From Candidatus Heimdallarchaeota archaeon AB_125 (GTDB lineage: Archaea > Asgardarchaeota > Heimdallarchaeia > Heimdallarchaeales > Heimdallarchaeaceae): 15,617 nucleotides of DNA. Positions 4,399-11,036 of this stretch are shown piece by piece. Position 1 is the first letter of the stretch. Every line of letters starts with the position of its first letter. The notes under the pieces are model-generated. The model was given only the letters and a program-made list of their open reading frames with translations. It made no database searches and was not told the origin of the DNA. Location of the stretch: assembly GCA_001940755.1 (NCBI GenBank), contig MEHH01000030.1, positions 1-15,617 of the forward strand, in the 5' to 3' direction. The translations under genes and the position numbers were made by a program.

Positions 4399-6324
4399 AT
4401 GACATTAGTAGAAAAGTTGTGCGAAAAACATACTGTAGAAAATGCTTTAGAACACGGGAAAGCTGCTGTAGGGCCAGTTATGGGGCTAGTATTCAAAGCA
4501 GATCCTGAATTGAGAAAAGATGCAAATAGCATCAAAGAGATTATCGAAAAGAAAGTTAATTATGTTAACTCACTAACAGCTGAAAAAATACAACAACTCG
4601 CACAAGATCAATATCCCGAACTTCTTCAAAAGAAAGAGAAAGAGGTTCAGGAAGAAGCTGATTTCATAAGAGAGATAATCGAAGAACACAATCGAACTGG
4701 ACGATTTGGTGGAAAGGTTCATACTCGATTCCCTCCTGAACCTAATGGTTGGTTACATATTGGTCACGCTTATTCGATAAATAGGAACTATAATTTTGCA
4801 GTAGAGTATGGTGGTAAGTTTAACCTTAGATTTGATGATACAAACCCTCTCACAGAAGAAGAAGAGTTCGTTGATTCAATTATCAAAGACGTGCTTTGGT
4901 TAGGAGTTGACTACGAAGATAGATTGCTGTTTGCGTCTGATTATTTCGATCAACTCTATGAATATGCAGTCCAACTAGTAAGAAAAGGGCTGGCGTACGT
5001 AGATGATTCAAGTGTTGAAGTAATTAGAGAGATGAGAGGAACTATTACTGAACCTGGAAAGGAAAGTCCTTACAGAAACAGATCCATTGAAGAAAACTTA
5101 GATCTCTTTGAGAGAATGAAGAAAGGTGAATTCAAAAACGGAGAAAAAGTACTTAGAGCTAAAATCGATATGGCTGATCCAAATATGCTCATGAGAGATC
5201 CTATAGTTTACAGAATTCTTCATGCTAGTCATCATAGAACAGGTGATAAATGGTGCATATATCCAATGTATGACTGGGCACATGGATTAGAAGATTCCAT
5301 TGAGAGAATCACACACTCTATCTGTACTCTTGAGTTCGAAGTTCATAGACCTCTATATGATTGGTATATTGACCAACTGGAAGAAGAGGAAGGAAGTCCA
5401 ATTCATCATTCTCAACAAATCGAATTTGCAAAGATGAATCTCTCCTATATGGTTCTGAGTAAAAGAAATATGAGGATGCTTGTAGAAGGAGAATATGTTA
5501 ATGGCTGGGATGATCCTAGAATGTTAACTATAGCTGGTATGAGACGTAGAGGATACACTCCTGAAGCTATTCGCAATTTCTCTTTAGCAATAAACTTCAC
5601 CAAAAGAGAGAAGATCATTGATATGTCTATCTTTGAGCACTATATTCGTGAAGATTTAGACAAGAAGTGTCCAAGAGTGATGAGTGTACTAAGTCCACTA
5701 AAAGTAGTAATTACTAATTATCCTAATGAGAAAGAAGAAGTATTTTCAGTACCTAATCACCCATCAGATAAAAGTATGGGAAACCGAGAAGTGAAATTTA
5801 CTAGAAACATATACATTGAACAAGAGGATTTCATGGAAAATCCTCCTGAAGATTATTATAGACTTTCTCCAGGTAAGGAAGTTAGGTTAAAGTATGCTTA
5901 TTTCATCAAGTGTGAAAATGTTGTTAAAGATGAAGGAACTGGAGAAATTAAGGAAATCCATTGTACTTACGATTCAGAGACAAAAGGAGGAGAATCTTCT
6001 GATGGAAGAAAAGTGCAAGGAACTATTCACTGGTCATCTTCAGATAATGCATTAGAAGTTGAAGTCAGACAATATGATCGTCTGTATACTAAAGAGAATC
6101 CCATGGAAACTGAAGAAGGTAAAGAATTCAAGGACTACATCAATTCTGATTCTATAAGTATTTTGAAATCCTATGTCGAACCATTTCTCAAAGAGAAGGA
6201 ACCTGGGTCAAGATTCCAATTTGAAAGAAATGGATATTACGTGATAGATATAGTTGATTCAACTAAGGAAAATATTGTATTCAACAGAATCATAACATTA
6301 AGAGATTCTTGGGCTAAGAAATAG
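4399..6324 (+). CDS. glnS: Glutaminyl-tRNA synthetase (class Ic) with an extra ~90-aa N-terminal GatB/YqeY-like helical domain
   Basis: HTRFPPEPNGWLHIGHAYS (HIGH), NLRFDDTNP, YPMYDWAHGLEDSIERITHSICTLEFEVHRPLYDWYI and MVLSKR (KMSKS) match the E. coli GlnRS motifs as I recall them (TRFPPEPNGYLHIGHAKS, LRFDDTNP, YPMYDF..THSLCTLEF, VMSKR) rather than GluRS. DFIREIIEEH aligns to E. coli NFIRQIIDED, so about 90 residues are N-terminal extension. The start is either GTG 4384 (track) or ATG 4399. A TATA-like aagatttatta about 27 nt upstream favours a leaderless ATG at 4399. Confidence 0.9.
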   Translation: MTLVEKLCEKHTVENALEHGKAAVGPVMGLVFKADPELRKDANSIKEIIEKKVNYVNSLTAEKIQQLAQDQYPELLQKKEKEVQEEADFIREIIEEHNRTGRFGGKVHTRFPPEPNGWLHIGHAYSINRNYNFAVEYGGKFNLRFDDTNPLTEEEEFVDSIIKDVLWLGVDYEDRLLFASDYFDQLYEYAVQLVRKGLAYVDDSSVEVIREMRGTITEPGKESPYRNRSIEENLDLFERMKKGEFKNGEKVLRAKIDMADPNMLMRDPIVYRILHASHHRTGDKWCIYPMYDWAHGLEDSIERITHSICTLEFEVHRPLYDWYIDQLEEEEGSPIHHSQQIEFAKMNLSYMVLSKRNMRMLVEGEYVNGWDDPRMLTIAGMRRRGYTPEAIRNFSLAINFTKREKIIDMSIFEHYIREDLDKKCPRVMSVLSPLKVVITNYPNEKEEVFSVPNHPSDKSMGNREVKFTRNIYIEQEDFMENPPEDYYRLSPGKEVRLKYAYFIKCENVVKDEGTGEIKEIHCTYDSETKGGESSDGRKVQGTIHWSSSDNALEVEVRQYDRLYTKENPMETEEGKEFKDYINSDSISILKSYVEPFLKEKEPGSRFQFERNGYYVIDIVDSTKENIVFNRIITLRDSWAKK

Positions 6325-6340
6325 CAGAGCATTAGAAAAA

Positions 6341-6348
6341 TTTAAAAT
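6341..6348 (+). promoter_or_regulatory. TTTAAAAT TATA box preceded by an A-rich BRE-like stretch, upstream of tRNA-Gln(UUG)
   Basis: The identical octamer TTTAAAAT also occurs upstream of the other two tRNA genes (9264-9271, 10921-10928). Here it lies 53 nt upstream of tRNA position 1. Confidence 0.55.
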
Positions 6349-6366
6349 TGAAACAATAAATCAACG

Positions 6367-6388
6367 GTTGTCAAAGAAATTTGACAAC
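6367..6388 (+). other. Perfect 9-bp inverted repeat with a GAAA loop (GTTGTCAAA-GAAA-TTTGACAAC) between glnS and tRNA-Gln
   Basis: Read directly. It lies 43 nt after the glnS stop and 5 nt before the tRNA 5' end. It could be an RNA hairpin (mRNA 3' end or pre-tRNA leader) or a protein-binding palindrome. Confidence 0.5.
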
Positions 6389-6393
6389 ACTTT

Positions 6394-6501
6394 AGTCCCT
6401 TGGTGTAGCCTGGAAACATTCCAGACTTTGAATCTGGCGCCGGGAGTTCAAAAGGTATTCTCTTGCGAGGAGAGCCTGAATTTATCTCCCAGGGACTACC
6501 A
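6394..6501 (+). tRNA. tRNA-Gln(UUG) with a ~32-nt intron in the T-loop and a genomically encoded CCA
   Basis: Manual fold:
- acceptor AGTCCCT/AGGGACT (A1:U72)
- D arm GTGT-AGCCTGGAA-ACAT
- anticodon arm CCAGA-CTTTGAA-TCTGG (TTG at 6428-6430)
- T stem GGGAG (6442-6446)/CTCCC (6486-6490), enclosing 39 nt instead of 7
- discriminator A, then CCA. Confidence 0.85.
6453..6484 (+). other. Non-canonical tRNA intron (about position 58/59 or 59/60) with a BHB-like fold
   Basis: Removing 32 nt restores a canonical T-loop TTCAAAT. The junction is ambiguous by +/-1 because of the A run. TTCA (6447-6450) pairs with TGAA (6477-6480), a 4-bp helix flanked by an AAA bulge (6451-6453) and a T-rich bulge (6481-6485). 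The inner helix is GGT/GCC. The apical hairpin is TTCTC-TTGC-GAGGA. Confidence 0.65.
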
Positions 6502-6648
6502 ACTTTTTCTAATTAATGAGATCAAAAACTAGTATCTTTTGTTTCAAGTGATTCTTTCAGTTCAAGTAACAAGGATTTCTTATAAAAAAGAGTTAAATAC
6601 GTACACTACTTCTGTATTTGTTGAAGAGATTAATAAGAAGGAGATTAT

Positions 6649-6981
6649 GTGATCTCAGAGAAATTTAAGAGAAAGATTCAAGCAATATGGATTTCATTCA
6701 GACCTTTTCTGATTTTCTTATTAGTAATAGCTATTTTGTTTGCTATAGCTCTGCTCATTATAGCTTTGGTTTGGTTATTTGATGATAATAACGTTACTTT
6801 CCTAATTCTTGTAATTATAGACTTCTCTGTTCTTGGAATTTTTGCTATAGGATTCTTAGCTTTTGGATTCCAGTATGTAATATCATTACTAATAGAAAAA
6901 GAAGAAGTAAAATGTATCAATTGTGGAAAGACAATATCGAGTAAAGCTAAAATCTGCTCTGAATGTGGTGTAGAGCAGTAA
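6649..6981 (+). CDS. Small membrane protein (2-3 TM helices) with a C-terminal zinc ribbon
   Basis: It has a GTG start with AAGGAG 6 nt upstream and a TATA-like tcttataaaaaag about 65 nt upstream. The hydrophobic core is FLIFLLVIAILFAIALLIIALVWL... and the C-terminus is CINCGKTISSKAKICSECG. The antisense ORF 6678..7022 is probably spurious. Confidence 0.6.
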   Translation: MISEKFKRKIQAIWISFRPFLIFLLVIAILFAIALLIIALVWLFDDNNVTFLILVIIDFSVLGIFAIGFLAFGFQYVISLLIEKEEVKCINCGKTISSKAKICSECGVEQ

Positions 6982-7009
6982 TAAGCGCAAATCAACACTA
7001 AAAGACTAA

Positions 7010-7441
7010 CTAAATATAACAAACTAAGATTTCAATTTCTGAATCACTAAACACTTCATGTATTATATCTCTAACTTTATTCCATTCTAGTTTATCTATT
7101 CCACTGCCTACTTTAGGCATCGCTAACTTCTTGATGCTCTTCTCTACGCATATTTCTCTCATTCTTTCTAATGCTTGTTTCATAGTTTCATAGGTAGGTT
7201 TGTGAAAAACTAGATTCTTTGTAATTAAATTGAATACTCTCCCTAATAGAATGCAAGTTGGATGATCTAGAACTGAAGGATTTTCTTTCTTTATCTGCCT
7301 GAATTGTTCTTTTAGATCAAATTTCTTGTTGAATGGAACTGCTATTCCTCCTCCCATAACGAAATCTGAGCTTATGCAATGAGCAAGATAATAGTCTTCA
7401 GACACAGTAAAAAGATCTTTTTGTAATTCTTGATAATGCAT
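7010..7441 (-). CDS. Macrodomain protein of the TARG1/OARD1 (C6orf130)/Poa1-like type; putative ADP-ribose/O-acetyl-ADP-ribose hydrolase
   Basis: [38 protein letters not shown] and [24 protein letters not shown]...IEILVCYI align by eye with human TARG1 as I recall it ([54 protein letters not shown]..IEEVF). The Lys (HKPTYE) and Asp (GxGxD) that are catalytic in TARG1 are both present. Confidence 0.75.
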   Translation of the reverse strand: [143 protein letters not shown]

Positions 7442-7476
7442 CTCATATCACATTTTTCTGATTTTTCTTATTCATT

Positions 7477-9210
7477 CTATTTCATATCTTTTTCAGCTAA
7501 ATATCTTCTTTCAATTTTTTCTTTATCTATAGACATTGTAAATCTCGATTTAATCCAAATAGTCAAGTTCTTTATCATTTTAACTGTTACTTTGTATTTT
7601 CTCTCAATAATAACAGCTGCTACAACTGTACCAATCCATACGGGTAAGAGATATCCAGCATATAAAACGGACCAGTTATCCCATTTTTGTGGATTTAAAC
7701 CTCTTCTGTATTCTTTCAAGTTGATTATCCCATCTGAATCCGAATCCAAGTTTGAATCATCAAGGAGAGGATCGAGATTATATTCATATTCCCAGTTATC
7801 TAGCATTCCGTCTGAATCACTATCTGGATTTGATATGTTTGTACCAGCAAATGTTTCACATAGATCACTCATATAATCTCCATCACTATCAATGTGACCA
7901 TGATTTCTGTAATCTCCTCTAAAGCTCCACCACGAACTTTGACTTGGTTGAGCTTCAGGATATTGAATACATACAAGATTTCCGGGATCTGGATTAGCTA
8001 CAATCTCTACGATTCCATCATCATTTAGATCTCCTATTGCATAACTAGAAAACCAGCACTTACCAATATCTAAAACTAACTCTTGGGTTCCATTTTCATC
8101 ATATATCTCTATACCATGAGTAGTCCCAAACAATATTTCTATATCATTATCTCCGTCAACATCTGATAATGCTATATGAGAACTACCAATTCCAGCTAAA
8201 CTGCTTGTATTCCACTTTTGTAATCCATTGCTACCTAAACAAACAAGAATTGAAGTATAGATATCTTCTAACAATATTACTAACTCCATTTGATTATCAT
8301 TGTCGAAATCTGCAAAACTAGGAGCATAATGAATTAAGTGATGATAGCTTTGGGATGAATTATGATAACTTCCAGTATTATACTTCCACCTCAATGTTCC
8401 ATTATGATTGAAACAGTAGACAAATTGTCTTAAAGTAGTCACGAACAACTCTAAATTTCCATCATTGTCTATATCAGCAAAATTTGTCCATCGAGGATCA
8501 TCGTTGTACCACGCATCTAAAAGATCATAGCTCCATTTAACAGTTCCATTTGAATCAAATACATAAAGCTGCTCATCCTTTGGAAGAACAATAATATCTA
8601 AACTTCCGTCTTGATCTAAATCTATAATGTTAGGAGAAGAGTATGTTTCATAGCCTTCGGTTGATACATTTAATAGCCTAACCACCTTTCCCCTAGAATT
8701 TAAGATAAAGGGTGTACTTCTATCAGGTTGAATAACAATTTCCAATCTATCATCACCCTCTAAATTTCCTATTGCAGGAAGACTATGCTCTGTATCACTA
8801 AAATCTGTATTTTTCCACATTAATCGTCCTTTATGACTTATGCAATATATCCCATATCTTGCCGCAAAGATTATTTCCATTTTGCCATCTCGATCTACAT
8901 CACTCACACTATAGTAGTCACAAAAACCTGTTATGTCTCTGAAATAAAATTTCCATATTGTTTTTCCAGAAGAATCAAAACATATAAGTCTTGGATTTGT
9001 TCCATAATCATCAGTAATAACAGCTAACACTTCCTTTCTTCCATCCTGATCTATATCTGCAATTGTTATTGATCCTTCCACATCTTCAAATTCTCTTATC
9101 CACAATGCTAGATCTAAATCATCAGATGCTGATTGAGTAAAGGTAACATTTGAGGTAAGAAACAAAACTGTGAAAATAAAAGAAATACTCCACAACCTAA
9201 TAATTTTCAT
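7477..9210 (-). CDS. Type-I membrane surface protein: signal peptide, about 8 FG-GAP/VCBS Ca-binding beta-propeller repeats, TSP3-like Asp-rich repeats, C-terminal TM helix and a 42-aa cytoplasmic tail
   Basis: The signal peptide is MKIIRLWSISFIFTVLFLTSNVTFTQSA. DxDxDG-type loops recur at regular spacing (DIDQDGRKEVL, DVDRDGKMEII, DLDQDGSLDII, DIDNDGNLELF, DFDNDNQMELV, DVDGDNDIEIL, DLNDDGIVEIV). These are followed by DSDGDYMSD / NPDSDSDGMLDNWE / DSDSDGIINLKE. The TM helix is SVLYAGYLLPVWIGTVVAAVII (nt 7606-7671), then ERKYK. Confidence 0.75.
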   Translation of the reverse strand: MKIIRLWSISFIFTVLFLTSNVTFTQSASDDLDLALWIREFEDVEGSITIADIDQDGRKEVLAVITDDYGTNPRLICFDSSGKTIWKFYFRDITGFCDYYSVSDVDRDGKMEIIFAARYGIYCISHKGRLMWKNTDFSDTEHSLPAIGNLEGDDRLEIVIQPDRSTPFILNSRGKVVRLLNVSTEGYETYSSPNIIDLDQDGSLDIIVLPKDEQLYVFDSNGTVKWSYDLLDAWYNDDPRWTNFADIDNDGNLELFVTTLRQFVYCFNHNGTLRWKYNTGSYHNSSQSYHHLIHYAPSFADFDNDNQMELVILLEDIYTSILVCLGSNGLQKWNTSSLAGIGSSHIALSDVDGDNDIEILFGTTHGIEIYDENGTQELVLDIGKCWFSSYAIGDLNDDGIVEIVANPDPGNLVCIQYPEAQPSQSSWWSFRGDYRNHGHIDSDGDYMSDLCETFAGTNISNPDSDSDGMLDNWEYEYNLDPLLDDSNLDSDSDGIINLKEYRRGLNPQKWDNWSVLYAGYLLPVWIGTVVAAVIIERKYKVTVKMIKNLTIWIKSRFTMSIDKEKIERRYLAEKDMK

Positions 9211-9263
9211 AAAAACACAATAATCTGTTCGAATTTAAATATCCTTTGGTTTCAAGAGAAGGA

Positions 9264-9271
9264 TTTAAAAT
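9264..9271 (+). promoter_or_regulatory. TTTAAAAT TATA box upstream of the 9307 tRNA
   Basis: Same octamer as at 6341 and 10921. It lies 43 nt upstream of tRNA position 1. Confidence 0.55.
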
Positions 9272-9306
9272 CTAACTAGTAGAACAAAAGATGTAATCAA
9301 CAAACT

Positions 9307-9381
9307 AGCCCTATGGTGTAGTGGCCAAGCATTGTAGGTTTCGGTCTGCAGACGGAAGTTCGAATCTTCCTAGGGCTACCA
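9307..9381 (+). tRNA. tRNA-like gene with an irregular anticodon arm; identity ambiguous (Arg-UCG in the standard register, or an 8-nt loop containing UUC/UCG); encoded CCA
   Basis: The acceptor AGCCCTA/TAGGGCT (A1:U72), D arm GTGT-AGTGGCCAA-GCAT and T arm GGAAG-TTCGAAT-CTTCC are all good, followed by discriminator A and CCA. The anticodon stem is the problem. The standard register GTAGG/CTGCA gives only 2 pairs. Shifting by one nt gives 5 pairs, TGTAG (9333-9337)/CTGCA (9346-9350), with an 8-nt loop GTTTCGGT. Confidence 0.6.
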
Positions 9382-9399: not shown

Positions 9400-10119
9400 T
9401 TACCAAGGTAACTCATTACCTTCCCAATCAAAGAATTTACCGGTTTCTTCTATAGACAGATTATCAATTACATTTCTAATTCCTTTAATTGATTCATATG
9501 TGGTTAGAGGAGCATTTTCAGTATATTCCATAGTGGTCTTGACCCATCCAGGATGAATGGAAACAACAGTTATTCCATCTTCTTCTAGATCAACAGAAAG
9601 TGCTTTAGTGATCATATTCAATGCCGCTTTACTAGCACTATAACTATATCCTCCTCCTTTTCGACTTCTTCTTCCAATACTCCCACTTGTTGATGAAATG
9701 TTGATAATAATTGGATTTTCTCCGTTTTTAATAAGTGGTAAAAATCTCTCAATAATAAGAACTGGAGCAATTGTGTTTACAGAAAATATTCTTTCAAAAT
9801 TCTCTTTATACAACTTACCTAGTTCATCATTGTACTTCTCTTGTGCCCCGAAACGGATTCCTGCATTGTTGATCAGTATATCTAAACCCTCCACTTCTTG
9901 AGAGACTATTGTAAAAGCATTATCAATTGAATCTTTATCAGAGACATCTAAATCAACTAAAATTAATCTATCTTGAAATTTGCCTTTTAATTCTAATAGT
10001 TCTGGATACTTTGATGGATTTCTATTGCAAGCTATAATTTTGTCTCCATTATCTAGGAGTTGTCTTACAAATTCGAATCCTAATCCTCTACTACTTCCAG
10101 TTATCAAAATCCTTCTCAT
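9400..10119 (-). CDS. Short-chain dehydrogenase/reductase, sniffer/C-factor-like classical SDR (paralog A)
   Basis: TGSSRGLGFEF (TGxxxGxG), NNAGI, YSYSASKAALN (YxxxK), HPGWVKT, and a C-terminal ...GNELPW. Confidence 0.85.
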   Translation of the reverse strand: MRRILITGSSRGLGFEFVRQLLDNGDKIIACNRNPSKYPELLELKGKFQDRLILVDLDVSDKDSIDNAFTIVSQEVEGLDILINNAGIRFGAQEKYNDELGKLYKENFERIFSVNTIAPVLIIERFLPLIKNGENPIIINISSTSGSIGRRSRKGGGYSYSASKAALNMITKALSVDLEEDGITVVSIHPGWVKTTMEYTENAPLTTYESIKGIRNVIDNLSIEETGKFFDWEGNELPW

Positions 10120-10145: not shown

Positions 10146-10865
10146 CTACCAGGGAACTTCTTTTCCTTCTCTATCAAGAAATTTACCAGAATCTGAGAGT
10201 CCACTTCTTTCAGTTAAATCAATTATTTGTGATATTGGTTCTTCTATTTCCAATGGAGCATTCGAACCACCCATATCTGTTTTTATCCACCCTGGGTGAA
10301 TTGCTAATGCAACTATTCCTTTATCCCTCAAATCATTTGATAAAACTTTTGTAACCATGTTAAGAGCTGCCTTACTTGTTGAATAGGAATATTTGCCGCC
10401 AACATTTCTCAAAGCAATACTTCCATTCTGAGAAGAAATGTTAACTATCTTTGCATTACTGCTATTTTCCAAAAGTGGTAAAAATCTTTCAGACATTAAT
10501 AATGGTGCAATAGTATTGACTAAAAAGACCTTACTAAAGTCTTCTTTGTAAATCTCTCCAAGTACTGAGGATTCTTCCTCATTTCCGGAAATTATTCCTG
10601 CATTATTGATAAGAATATCAATATTATCGAATTCTTTCTCAATTTCTTCAAAAACTGTATTTCGAGACTGCTCATCTGCAACATCAAGTTGTACAATAGT
10701 TAATCTATCAGAAAATCTAGTCTTCATCTCTTTCAAATCATCAGCTTTCTCAGGTTTCCTGCAACTAGCAATAACATAATCTCCTCTTTCAAGATATTGT
10801 TTTGTAAATTCAAATCCTAACCCTCTACTAGCTCCAGTAATGAAAATTTTCTTCATAAAATTCAT
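10146..10865 (-). CDS. Short-chain dehydrogenase/reductase, sniffer/C-factor-like classical SDR (paralog B)
   Basis: TGASRGLGFEF, NNAGI, YSYSTSKAALN, and a C-terminal ...GKEVPW. HPGWIKTDMGGSNAPL is close to the Drosophila sniffer motif HPGWVKTDMGGSSAPL as I recall it. The start is ATG 10865 or ATG 10856. Confidence 0.85.
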   Translation of the reverse strand: MNFMKKIFITGASRGLGFEFTKQYLERGDYVIASCRKPEKADDLKEMKTRFSDRLTIVQLDVADEQSRNTVFEEIEKEFDNIDILINNAGIISGNEEESSVLGEIYKEDFSKVFLVNTIAPLLMSERFLPLLENSSNAKIVNISSQNGSIALRNVGGKYSYSTSKAALNMVTKVLSNDLRDKGIVALAIHPGWIKTDMGGSNAPLEIEEPISQIIDLTERSGLSDSGKFLDREGKEVPW

Positions 10866-10962: not shown

Positions 10963-11036
10963 AGACCCATCGTCTAGTGGAAGGATACGGGACTCTGGAT
11001 CCTGTGGCAGGCGTTCAAATCGCCTTGGGTCTGCCA
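10963..11036 (+). tRNA. tRNA-Gln(CUG), intron-less, encoded CCA
   Basis: Manual fold:
- acceptor AGACCCA/TGGGTCT (A1:U72)
- D arm GTCT-AGTGGAA-GGAT
- anticodon arm CGGGA-CTCTGGA-TCCTG (CTG at 10995-10997)
- variable region TGGC
- T arm AGGCG-TTCAAAT-CGCCT
- discriminator G, then CCA. Confidence 0.85.

Follow-up and report, generated by a model that had tools for sequence, protein, structure and literature searches.

We analyzed a 15,617-nucleotide (nt) stretch of DNA from Candidatus Heimdallarchaeota archaeon AB_125 (contig MEHH01000030.1 of assembly GCA_001940755.1; hereafter the window) and found that positions 6394-6501 of its forward strand are a tRNA-Gln(UUG) gene, with a complete class-I cloverleaf and an encoded CCA, whose T-loop is interrupted by 32 nt. 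We judge with a probability of about 0.85 that this is a functional tRNA gene from which the insert is spliced as a bulge-helix-bulge (BHB) intron. Comparison with orthologues, fold analysis and shuffled controls establish an insertion with exact boundaries and a non-random BHB fold in a gene whose signals are intact. The mechanism and the class of intron are already established, and the modest new points are a base-exact comparison of the gene before and after insertion and a strict BHB motif that is hidden from a first inspection of the fold.

From 5' to 3' the gene is laid out as AGTCCCT TG GTGT AGCCTGGAA ACAT T CCAGA CTTTGAA TCTGG CGCC GGGAG (39 nt) CTCCC AGGGACT A CCA, and its cloverleaf elements can be read directly from these letters:

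6394-6400 with 6491-6497, forward strand: acceptor stem, AGTCCCT with AGGGACT
6428-6430, forward strand: anticodon TTG
6442-6446 with 6486-6490, forward strand: T stem, GGGAG with CTCCC, enclosing 39 nt (6447-6485) and not 7
6498, forward strand: discriminator A73, followed by CCA at 6499-6501

An A1-U72 first pair together with an A73 discriminator is the archaeal tRNA-Gln signature (PMC9499178), and the tRNA-Gln(UUG) of the window has both. The coordinates, the 39-nt T-loop and every base pair listed in an initial annotation of this DNA were all confirmed in the sequence.

The insert hides the gene from routine tools. Neither ARAGORN nor Rfam at its gathering score called 6394-6501, the only other tRNAs found in the window being those at 9307-9381 and 10963-11036, and the Rfam tRNA model gave the intact gene a partial match of 20.5 bits (6401-6464). 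When about 32 nt were deleted in silico, the T-loop UUCAAAU was restored, as the initial annotation had proposed, and ARAGORN called tRNA-Gln(ttg); the joined-exon sequence, which is the mature form of two metagenome loci described below (L091 and L098), scored 58.2 bits with the Rfam tRNA model. A covariance model derived from ten Heimdall tRNA-Gln(UUG) orthologues matched 6400-6491 of the uncut gene at 54.2 bits (E 2.7e-13), its alignment placing 33 nt where the model holds one T-loop position. A tRNA gene overlooked by ARAGORN and Rfam annotation is recovered in this way.

Orthologues define what was inserted. Two Candidatus Heimdallarchaeota metagenome-assembled genomes (MAGs) among the species-representative genomes, L001 and L002, carry an intron-less tRNA-Gln(UUG) directly 3' of the same glutaminyl-tRNA synthetase (GlnRS) gene. 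We also scanned metagenomes with an exon pattern that stops at UUCRA and is equally able to find intron-bearing and intron-less genes; the scan returned 22 tRNA-Gln(UUG) genes, none with the insert (0/22), and nine of these matches are syntenic Heimdall loci (L081, L085, L091, L095-L098, L100 and L101). Exactly 32 nt are absent in 11/11 syntenic Heimdall orthologues, namely L001, L002 and the nine metagenome loci. In L091 and L098 the tRNA is identical to the joined exons of the window at 76/76 positions, and their flanking DNA is just 78-93% identical to the window. The alignment of these sequences (A4) has one clean 32-nt gap, and the promoter box, leader repeat, CCA and downstream T-run are all conserved. 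The gene can accordingly be divided as follows:

6394-6451, forward strand: 5' exon, which in the strict 58/59 register covers tRNA positions 1-58 (acceptor 5' strand, D arm, anticodon arm, variable loop, T-stem 5' strand and UUCAA), the same as in intron-less L091 and L098 and matched by the covariance model
6452-6483, forward strand: 32-nt intron in the strict 58/59 register, absent from the 11 syntenic Heimdall orthologues and the same in nine assemblies
6453-6484, forward strand: the 32-nt intron in the equivalent 59/60 register, giving the same spliced product
6484-6501, forward strand: 3' exon (A59, U60, T-stem 3' strand, acceptor 3' strand, A73 and CCA), identical to L091 and L098

Because it lies in a run of A residues, the junction can be placed in two ways one base apart, and deletion of either 6452-6483 or 6453-6484 leaves an identical product.

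Independent assemblies carry the same interrupted gene. A macro-domain protein encoded downstream of the tRNA was present on 21 contigs, and nine retrieved loci span the tRNA (JGI 3300028837, 3300008516 and 3300008517; Logan SRR3085416 and SRR3085435; NCBI GCA_029856355.1; and three ENA assemblies). All nine contain an identical intron-bearing pre-tRNA, with 99.8-100% overall identity to the window, and an assembly artefact is ruled out because the same pre-tRNA recurs in assemblies made independently.

The signals around the gene are intact:

6336-6348, forward strand: A/T-rich TATA-like box AAAAATTTAAAAT, invariant in the window, L091, L098 and L001 (alignment A4)
6367-6388, forward strand: inverted repeat GTTGTCAAA-GAAA-TTTGACAAC, kept in the window, L001, L002, L091 and L098
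6504-6508, forward strand: T-run directly 3' of the CCA, kept in orthologues

Position and conservation make the box at 6336-6348 a candidate promoter. Between it and the tRNA 5' end, the repeat consists of perfect 9-bp arms around a GAAA spacer, and its counterparts in L001 (~7963-7984) and L002 (~8048-8070) keep the sequence although the surrounding Heimdall DNA has diverged; it probably forms a hairpin in the 5' leader or is an operator-like palindrome bound by a protein. The T-run is a likely archaeal transcription terminator.

The initial annotation described the fold around the splice sites as a relaxed BHB. The BHB motif has a 3-4-3 layout (PMC6379350), and in a crystal structure of the splicing endonuclease EndA with RNA each bulge is cut between its second and third bases (PMC12397907). 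Combining the 3-4-3 motif, this cut rule and the standard 37/38 site, we infer by our own arithmetic that the central helix lies 5' of the bulge on each strand. When the T stem slips by one base, the T arm can form a strict hBHBh' (3-4-3) motif in which h, H and h' each have 4 bp:

6442-6445, forward strand: 5' strand of outer helix h (G49 G50 G51 A52), pairing with 6485-6488 in the slipped register, the T stem displaced by one base (G49-C63, G50.U62, G51-C61, A52-U60)
6446-6449, forward strand: 5' strand of central helix H (G53 U54 U55 C56), pairing with 6478-6481
6450-6452, forward strand: 5' bulge AAA, with a predicted cut after its second base at 6451/6452
6453-6477, forward strand: inner helix h', AGGU 6453-6456 with GCCU 6474-6477 (A6453-U6477, G-C, G-C, U.G), and an apical hairpin, UUCUC 6458-6462 with GAGGA 6467-6471 around the loop UUGC 6463-6466; present in the minimum free energy (MFE) fold with pair probabilities >0.9
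6478-6481, forward strand: 3' strand of H in the predicted fold, GAAU (4 bp: G53.U6481, U54-A6480, U55-A6479, C56-G6478)
6482-6484, forward strand: 3' bulge UUA, with a predicted cut at 6483/6484

The standard cuts at 6451/6452 and 6483/6484 yield GGGAG-UUCAAAU-CUCCC exactly and remove 6452-6483. We refined the motif to strict because only the slipped register places both cuts after the second bulge base. Among shuffled introns, 0.12-0.29% gave a strict 3-4-3 motif in the correct register; a relaxed motif, again in the correct register, came up for 1.1-2.6% of 32-mers that were shuffled or random. The proposal of a BHB-type intron at 58/59 or 59/60 is backed by orthologues, tRNA models, independent assemblies and shuffle tests. 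Its label of relaxed needs amending: the relaxed fold exists (GGT 6454-6456 with GCC 6474-6476, and TTCTC with GAGGA), but a strict 3-4-3 motif is available through the slipped T stem. Given that the intron is spliced, we favor the strict 58/59 register as the productive substrate on the basis of this modeling, if with some reserve.

The closest competitor takes the relaxed motif on the native T stem as the productive substrate; a broad-specificity (alpha-beta)2 EndA would cut it at 59/60 and remove 6453-6484. In this fold H is formed by UUCA 6447-6450 and UGAA 6477-6480, with bulges of AAA (3 nt) and UUUAU (5 nt). The native T stem is retained, the 5' half (H, 3-nt bulge, h') is canonical, and the conformer makes up ~10% of the ensemble at -14.6 kcal/mol, below the -12.0 kcal/mol of its strict counterpart. 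Position 59/60 is moreover the documented T-loop counterpart of 37/38, at which a relaxed hBH intron of ARMAN-2 tRNA-Cys was cleaved in vitro (PMC3239211), and Asgard EndA has an L1 loop associated with relaxed substrates (PMC5829648). However, a 7-nt T-loop demands a 3' cut after the fourth base of the 5-nt bulge, whereas the standard cut after the second base would leave a 9-nt T-loop, and the relaxed bulges on record are 1-4 nt long (PMC3239211). The relaxed motif also arises by chance ~10x more often than the strict one, at the shuffle rates given above. On balance we consider a relaxed substrate less likely than the strict one, though it is the strongest of the alternatives.

By analogy with what is established for archaeal BHB introns, transcription, cleavage and ligation would proceed as follows. 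Transcription from the conserved A/T-box promoter would produce a pre-tRNA with a 32-nt T-loop insert, the T arm would refold, and the one-base slip of the T stem would create the strict bulge-helix-bulge. Binding of EndA would have to capture this higher-energy conformer. Cleavage of each bulge after its second base would release 6452-6483, and an RtcB-type ligase would join the exons into a 76-nt tRNA with a normal T-loop UUCAAAU, so that the expected spliced product is a 76-nt tRNA containing GGGAGUUCAAAUCUCCC. The initial annotation had also suggested that splicing gates charging of this tRNA beside its GlnRS gene; the generic need to splice a pre-tRNA applies here, but there was no sign of a special regulatory link.

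Several observations weigh against a functional gene with a spliced strict-BHB intron. The strict conformer is not the MFE fold, the T arm having -12.0 kcal/mol in this form compared to -14.6 in the relaxed and -16.3 in the MFE form; it lies 4.3 kcal/mol above the MFE, and it needs a slipped T stem with a G.U pair. The intron-bearing copies, being 99.8-100% identical, are too alike for covariation or selection on the intron to show. No endA gene was present within the ~31 kb of this genome that we scanned, and the search for a second UUG-anticodon tRNA, which likewise found none, covers the same ~31 kb.

The host side of the locus is archaeal and is consistent with a capacity to splice such an intron. 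The GlnRS gene ends 70 nt upstream of the tRNA and is 90% and 65% identical to those of the two Heimdallarchaeota MAGs, with synteny kept, and the archaeal marker genes in the flanks code for NucS, Alba, RIO1 kinase and an archaeal prepilin peptidase. An (alpha-beta)2 EndA with an L1 loop tied to broad specificity is reported from Asgard archaea, a Heimdallarchaeote among them (PMC5829648). The gene also appears to be needed: CAA outnumbers CAG 86:16 in the open reading frames (ORFs) of the window, the ~15 kb obtained beyond the window contains no additional tRNA, the sole other nearby Gln tRNA has the anticodon CUG, and the tRNA at 9307-9381 is not UUG. Within ~31 kb, the intron-bearing gene is the only decoder of CAA, the dominant Gln codon.

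These observations bear on a second alternative, that the gene is a pseudogene with a random, unspliced 32-bp insertion and that CAA is decoded by a copy elsewhere. Such a history would fit an insertion limited to this lineage among 12 syntenic loci and a gene that standard tRNA finders leave uncalled; L085 and L095 hold a second UUG copy in the cluster, so redundancy exists in the clade, and our tRNA scan was confined to ~31 kb of the genome. But a random insert would seldom (p about 0.001-0.003) form a BHB in the single register able to restore the tRNA, and the exons are unmutated relative to L091 and L098 despite 7-22% divergence of the flanks. The promoter, leader hairpin, CCA and terminator are intact, the second paralogue here (9307-9381) lacks the UUG anticodon, and CAA is the main Gln codon. 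A pseudogene is therefore improbable.

That the 32 nt arose as an artefact of assembly or sequencing, or are the scar of mobile-element integration at the tRNA's 3' half, is the weakest proposal and can be set aside with near certainty: Heimdall mobile elements do integrate at tRNA genes (PMC8813620), and ~2.8 kb of extra genes (6502-9306) follow this tRNA relative to L098 and L081, but the sequence is identical in nine assemblies from different pipelines and samples, the tRNA 3' segment ATCTCCCAGGGACTACCA occurs once in the window even with up to 3 mismatches and so forms no direct repeat, no second copy of the insert exists in the window, the collected loci or viral contigs, and L091 has the same downstream macro-domain gene beside an intron-less tRNA. 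Two other candidates were rejected. A self-splicing group I or II intron does not suit an insert of just 32 nt, and 6340-6560 has no Rfam intron match at E up to 10; a C/D-box small RNA within the intron was dismissed by inspection, as the insert is too short and lacks a C box.

Since 11 orthologues are intron-less and a single lineage bears the intron, parsimony favors gain in the lineage of the window, and the intron is probably a lineage-specific, recent gain at 58/59. A fuller account, in which a strict-BHB intron was gained very recently in this single lineage at 58/59 on a slipped T stem, with L091 and L098 preserving near-identical 'before' alleles, is offered tentatively and at somewhat less than even odds. 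No further copies of the intron were found within the window or viral contigs, and a blastn-short search of the intron against 102 collected loci returned chance 10-12-mers only.

Introns at positions 53/54, 56/57 and 59/60 of archaeal tRNAs are documented, and some 59/60 introns have been cleaved in vitro (PMC4090602, PMC3239211). The T-loop introns of ARMAN-2, which include both relaxed and strict BHB motifs (PMC3239211), are similar to ours in that a BHB intron lies inside the T-loop, uses the T stem as outer helix and is missed by standard tRNA finders; ARMAN-2 tRNA-Pro shares the strict hBHBh' motif. Cleavage of the ARMAN-2 tRNA-Cys substrate has been shown in vitro. ARMAN-2 is a DPANN archaeon with an epsilon2 EndA, unlike the Asgard/Heimdall host, whose EndA is (alpha-beta)2 by the literature, and unlike ARMAN-2 the strict motif of this 32-nt intron is built on a T stem slipped by one base, with the junction at 58/59.

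In Thermoproteales and in other Crenarchaeota (Sugahara et al. 2008; Fujishima et al. 2010; reviewed in PMC4090602), non-canonical tRNA introns likewise occupy sites other than 37/38, are recognized through a BHB and were gained in specific lineages. Those genomes carry many such introns, often related in sequence, which suggests transposition, whereas here we see one intron with no related copy found, in a host of a different phylum. Among Asgard archaea, Atabeyarchaeia and Freyarchaeia carry introns in 92-95% of tRNA genes, many with several and often at non-canonical positions (Valentin-Alvarado et al. 2024, PMC11291895). They resemble our case in their Asgard host and non-canonical intron position, and because they carry non-canonical introns we conclude that the Asgard splicing machinery handles such substrates. 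The initial annotation had called introns at this site rare and known mainly from Thermoproteales-type genomes, a statement that is qualified by the Asgard host and by reports of a broad-specificity EndA and many non-canonical introns in Asgard archaea (PMC5829648, PMC11291895). Unlike in Atabeyarchaeia and Freyarchaeia, introns are absent from both other tRNA genes of the window and from all orthologues, and against that background the intron looks like an isolated gain in a Heimdall lineage.

The locus around the tRNA has unusual features of its own. The GlnRS gene (4399-6324, forward strand) encodes a 641-aa protein that scores 690 bits against TIGR00440 glnS (cut-off 426), and its closest homologues in species-representative genomes are those of L001 (90%) and L002 (65%), followed by bacterial GlnRS at ~60%. 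A 2022 review stated that all archaea lack GlnRS (PMC9499178), and a 2024 preprint mentions GlnRS in passing for Hodarchaeales and Kariarchaeaceae. The protein has an N-terminal extension of ~95 aa that is absent from bacterial homologues; a Pfam search of this extension found nothing significant, and the archaeal GluRS model TIGR00463 aligns to the protein from residue 5. The comparison hints at an archaeal GluRS-type N-terminus fused to a bacterial-type GlnRS core.

A tRNA-Gln-like paralogue with an odd anticodon loop is always part of the GlnRS and tRNA-Gln cluster:

Window 9307-9381, forward strand: Gln-like paralogue tRNA
L098 1787-1861, reverse strand: Gln-like paralogue tRNA
L081 1627-1702, reverse strand: Gln-like paralogue tRNA
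L085 123-198, reverse strand: Gln-like paralogue tRNA
L095 532-607, reverse strand: Gln-like paralogue tRNA
L001 13618-13693, forward strand: Gln-like paralogue tRNA

Three lineages have 6-nt anticodon loops, UUUCGG in the window, UUUAGG in L098 and CUUCAG in L081, and the pair that closes the loop covaries among them (G.U, G-C and U-A, respectively), with compensatory changes also present in the acceptor, anticodon and T stems. These loops retain Y32, U33 and R37, and read as triplets their anticodons are UCG, UAG and UCA. The L085 and L095 paralogues are normal UUG tRNAs, and that of L001 carries UUA, an anticodon that would read the stop codon UAA. The paralogues score 40-46 bits with Rfam and encode CCA; several of those at L085 123-198, L095 532-607 and L081 1627-1702 have a mismatched A1.A72 or A1.G72, which resembles the weak 1-72 pair opened by bacterial GlnRS. 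A search of the literature on 6- or 8-nt anticodon loops in archaea found nothing relevant. The paralogue could be a conserved tRNA that decodes in a non-standard way or works outside translation. The combination of a bacterial-type GlnRS in an archaeon and Gln-like paralogues with 6-nt loops looks more unusual than the intron.

The third tRNA of the window (10963-11036, forward strand) is a tRNA-Gln(CUG) with A1-U72, an encoded CCA and a bacterial-like G73, whereas the UUG isoacceptor has the archaeal-like A73. This difference may be relevant to whether GlnRS or ND-GluRS with GatDE charges each isoacceptor. The ~2.8 kb between tRNA-Gln(UUG) and the next tRNA (6502-9306) encode a small membrane zinc-ribbon protein, a macro-domain protein and a 577-aa FG-GAP repeat protein. 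The tRNAs lie close together in L081, L085, L095 and L098, and the macro-domain gene is common to the window and L091; this pattern indicates gene-content flux beside the tRNA gene. Between the odd tRNA and tRNA-Gln(CUG) lie tandem 239-aa short-chain dehydrogenase paralogues (9400-10119 and 10146-10865, both reverse strand), an arrangement kept in L098 and L001.

The hidden strict BHB shows that a T-loop intron that looks relaxed may conceal a strict motif once the T stem slips by one base, which matters for reading EndA specificity from genome data and reveals no new mechanism. Orthologues that lack the intron but share the exons exactly place the insertion to the base, which is helpful for studies of how tRNA introns are gained. 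If the very recent gain at 58/59 is true, the locus would be a rare natural before/after pair for working out archaeal tRNA-intron insertion, one example route being a reversed EndA/ligase reaction into a T arm already able to form the outer helix. The locus would likewise help to judge whether intron gain shields tRNA genes from the tRNA-targeting mobile elements of Heimdall archaea.

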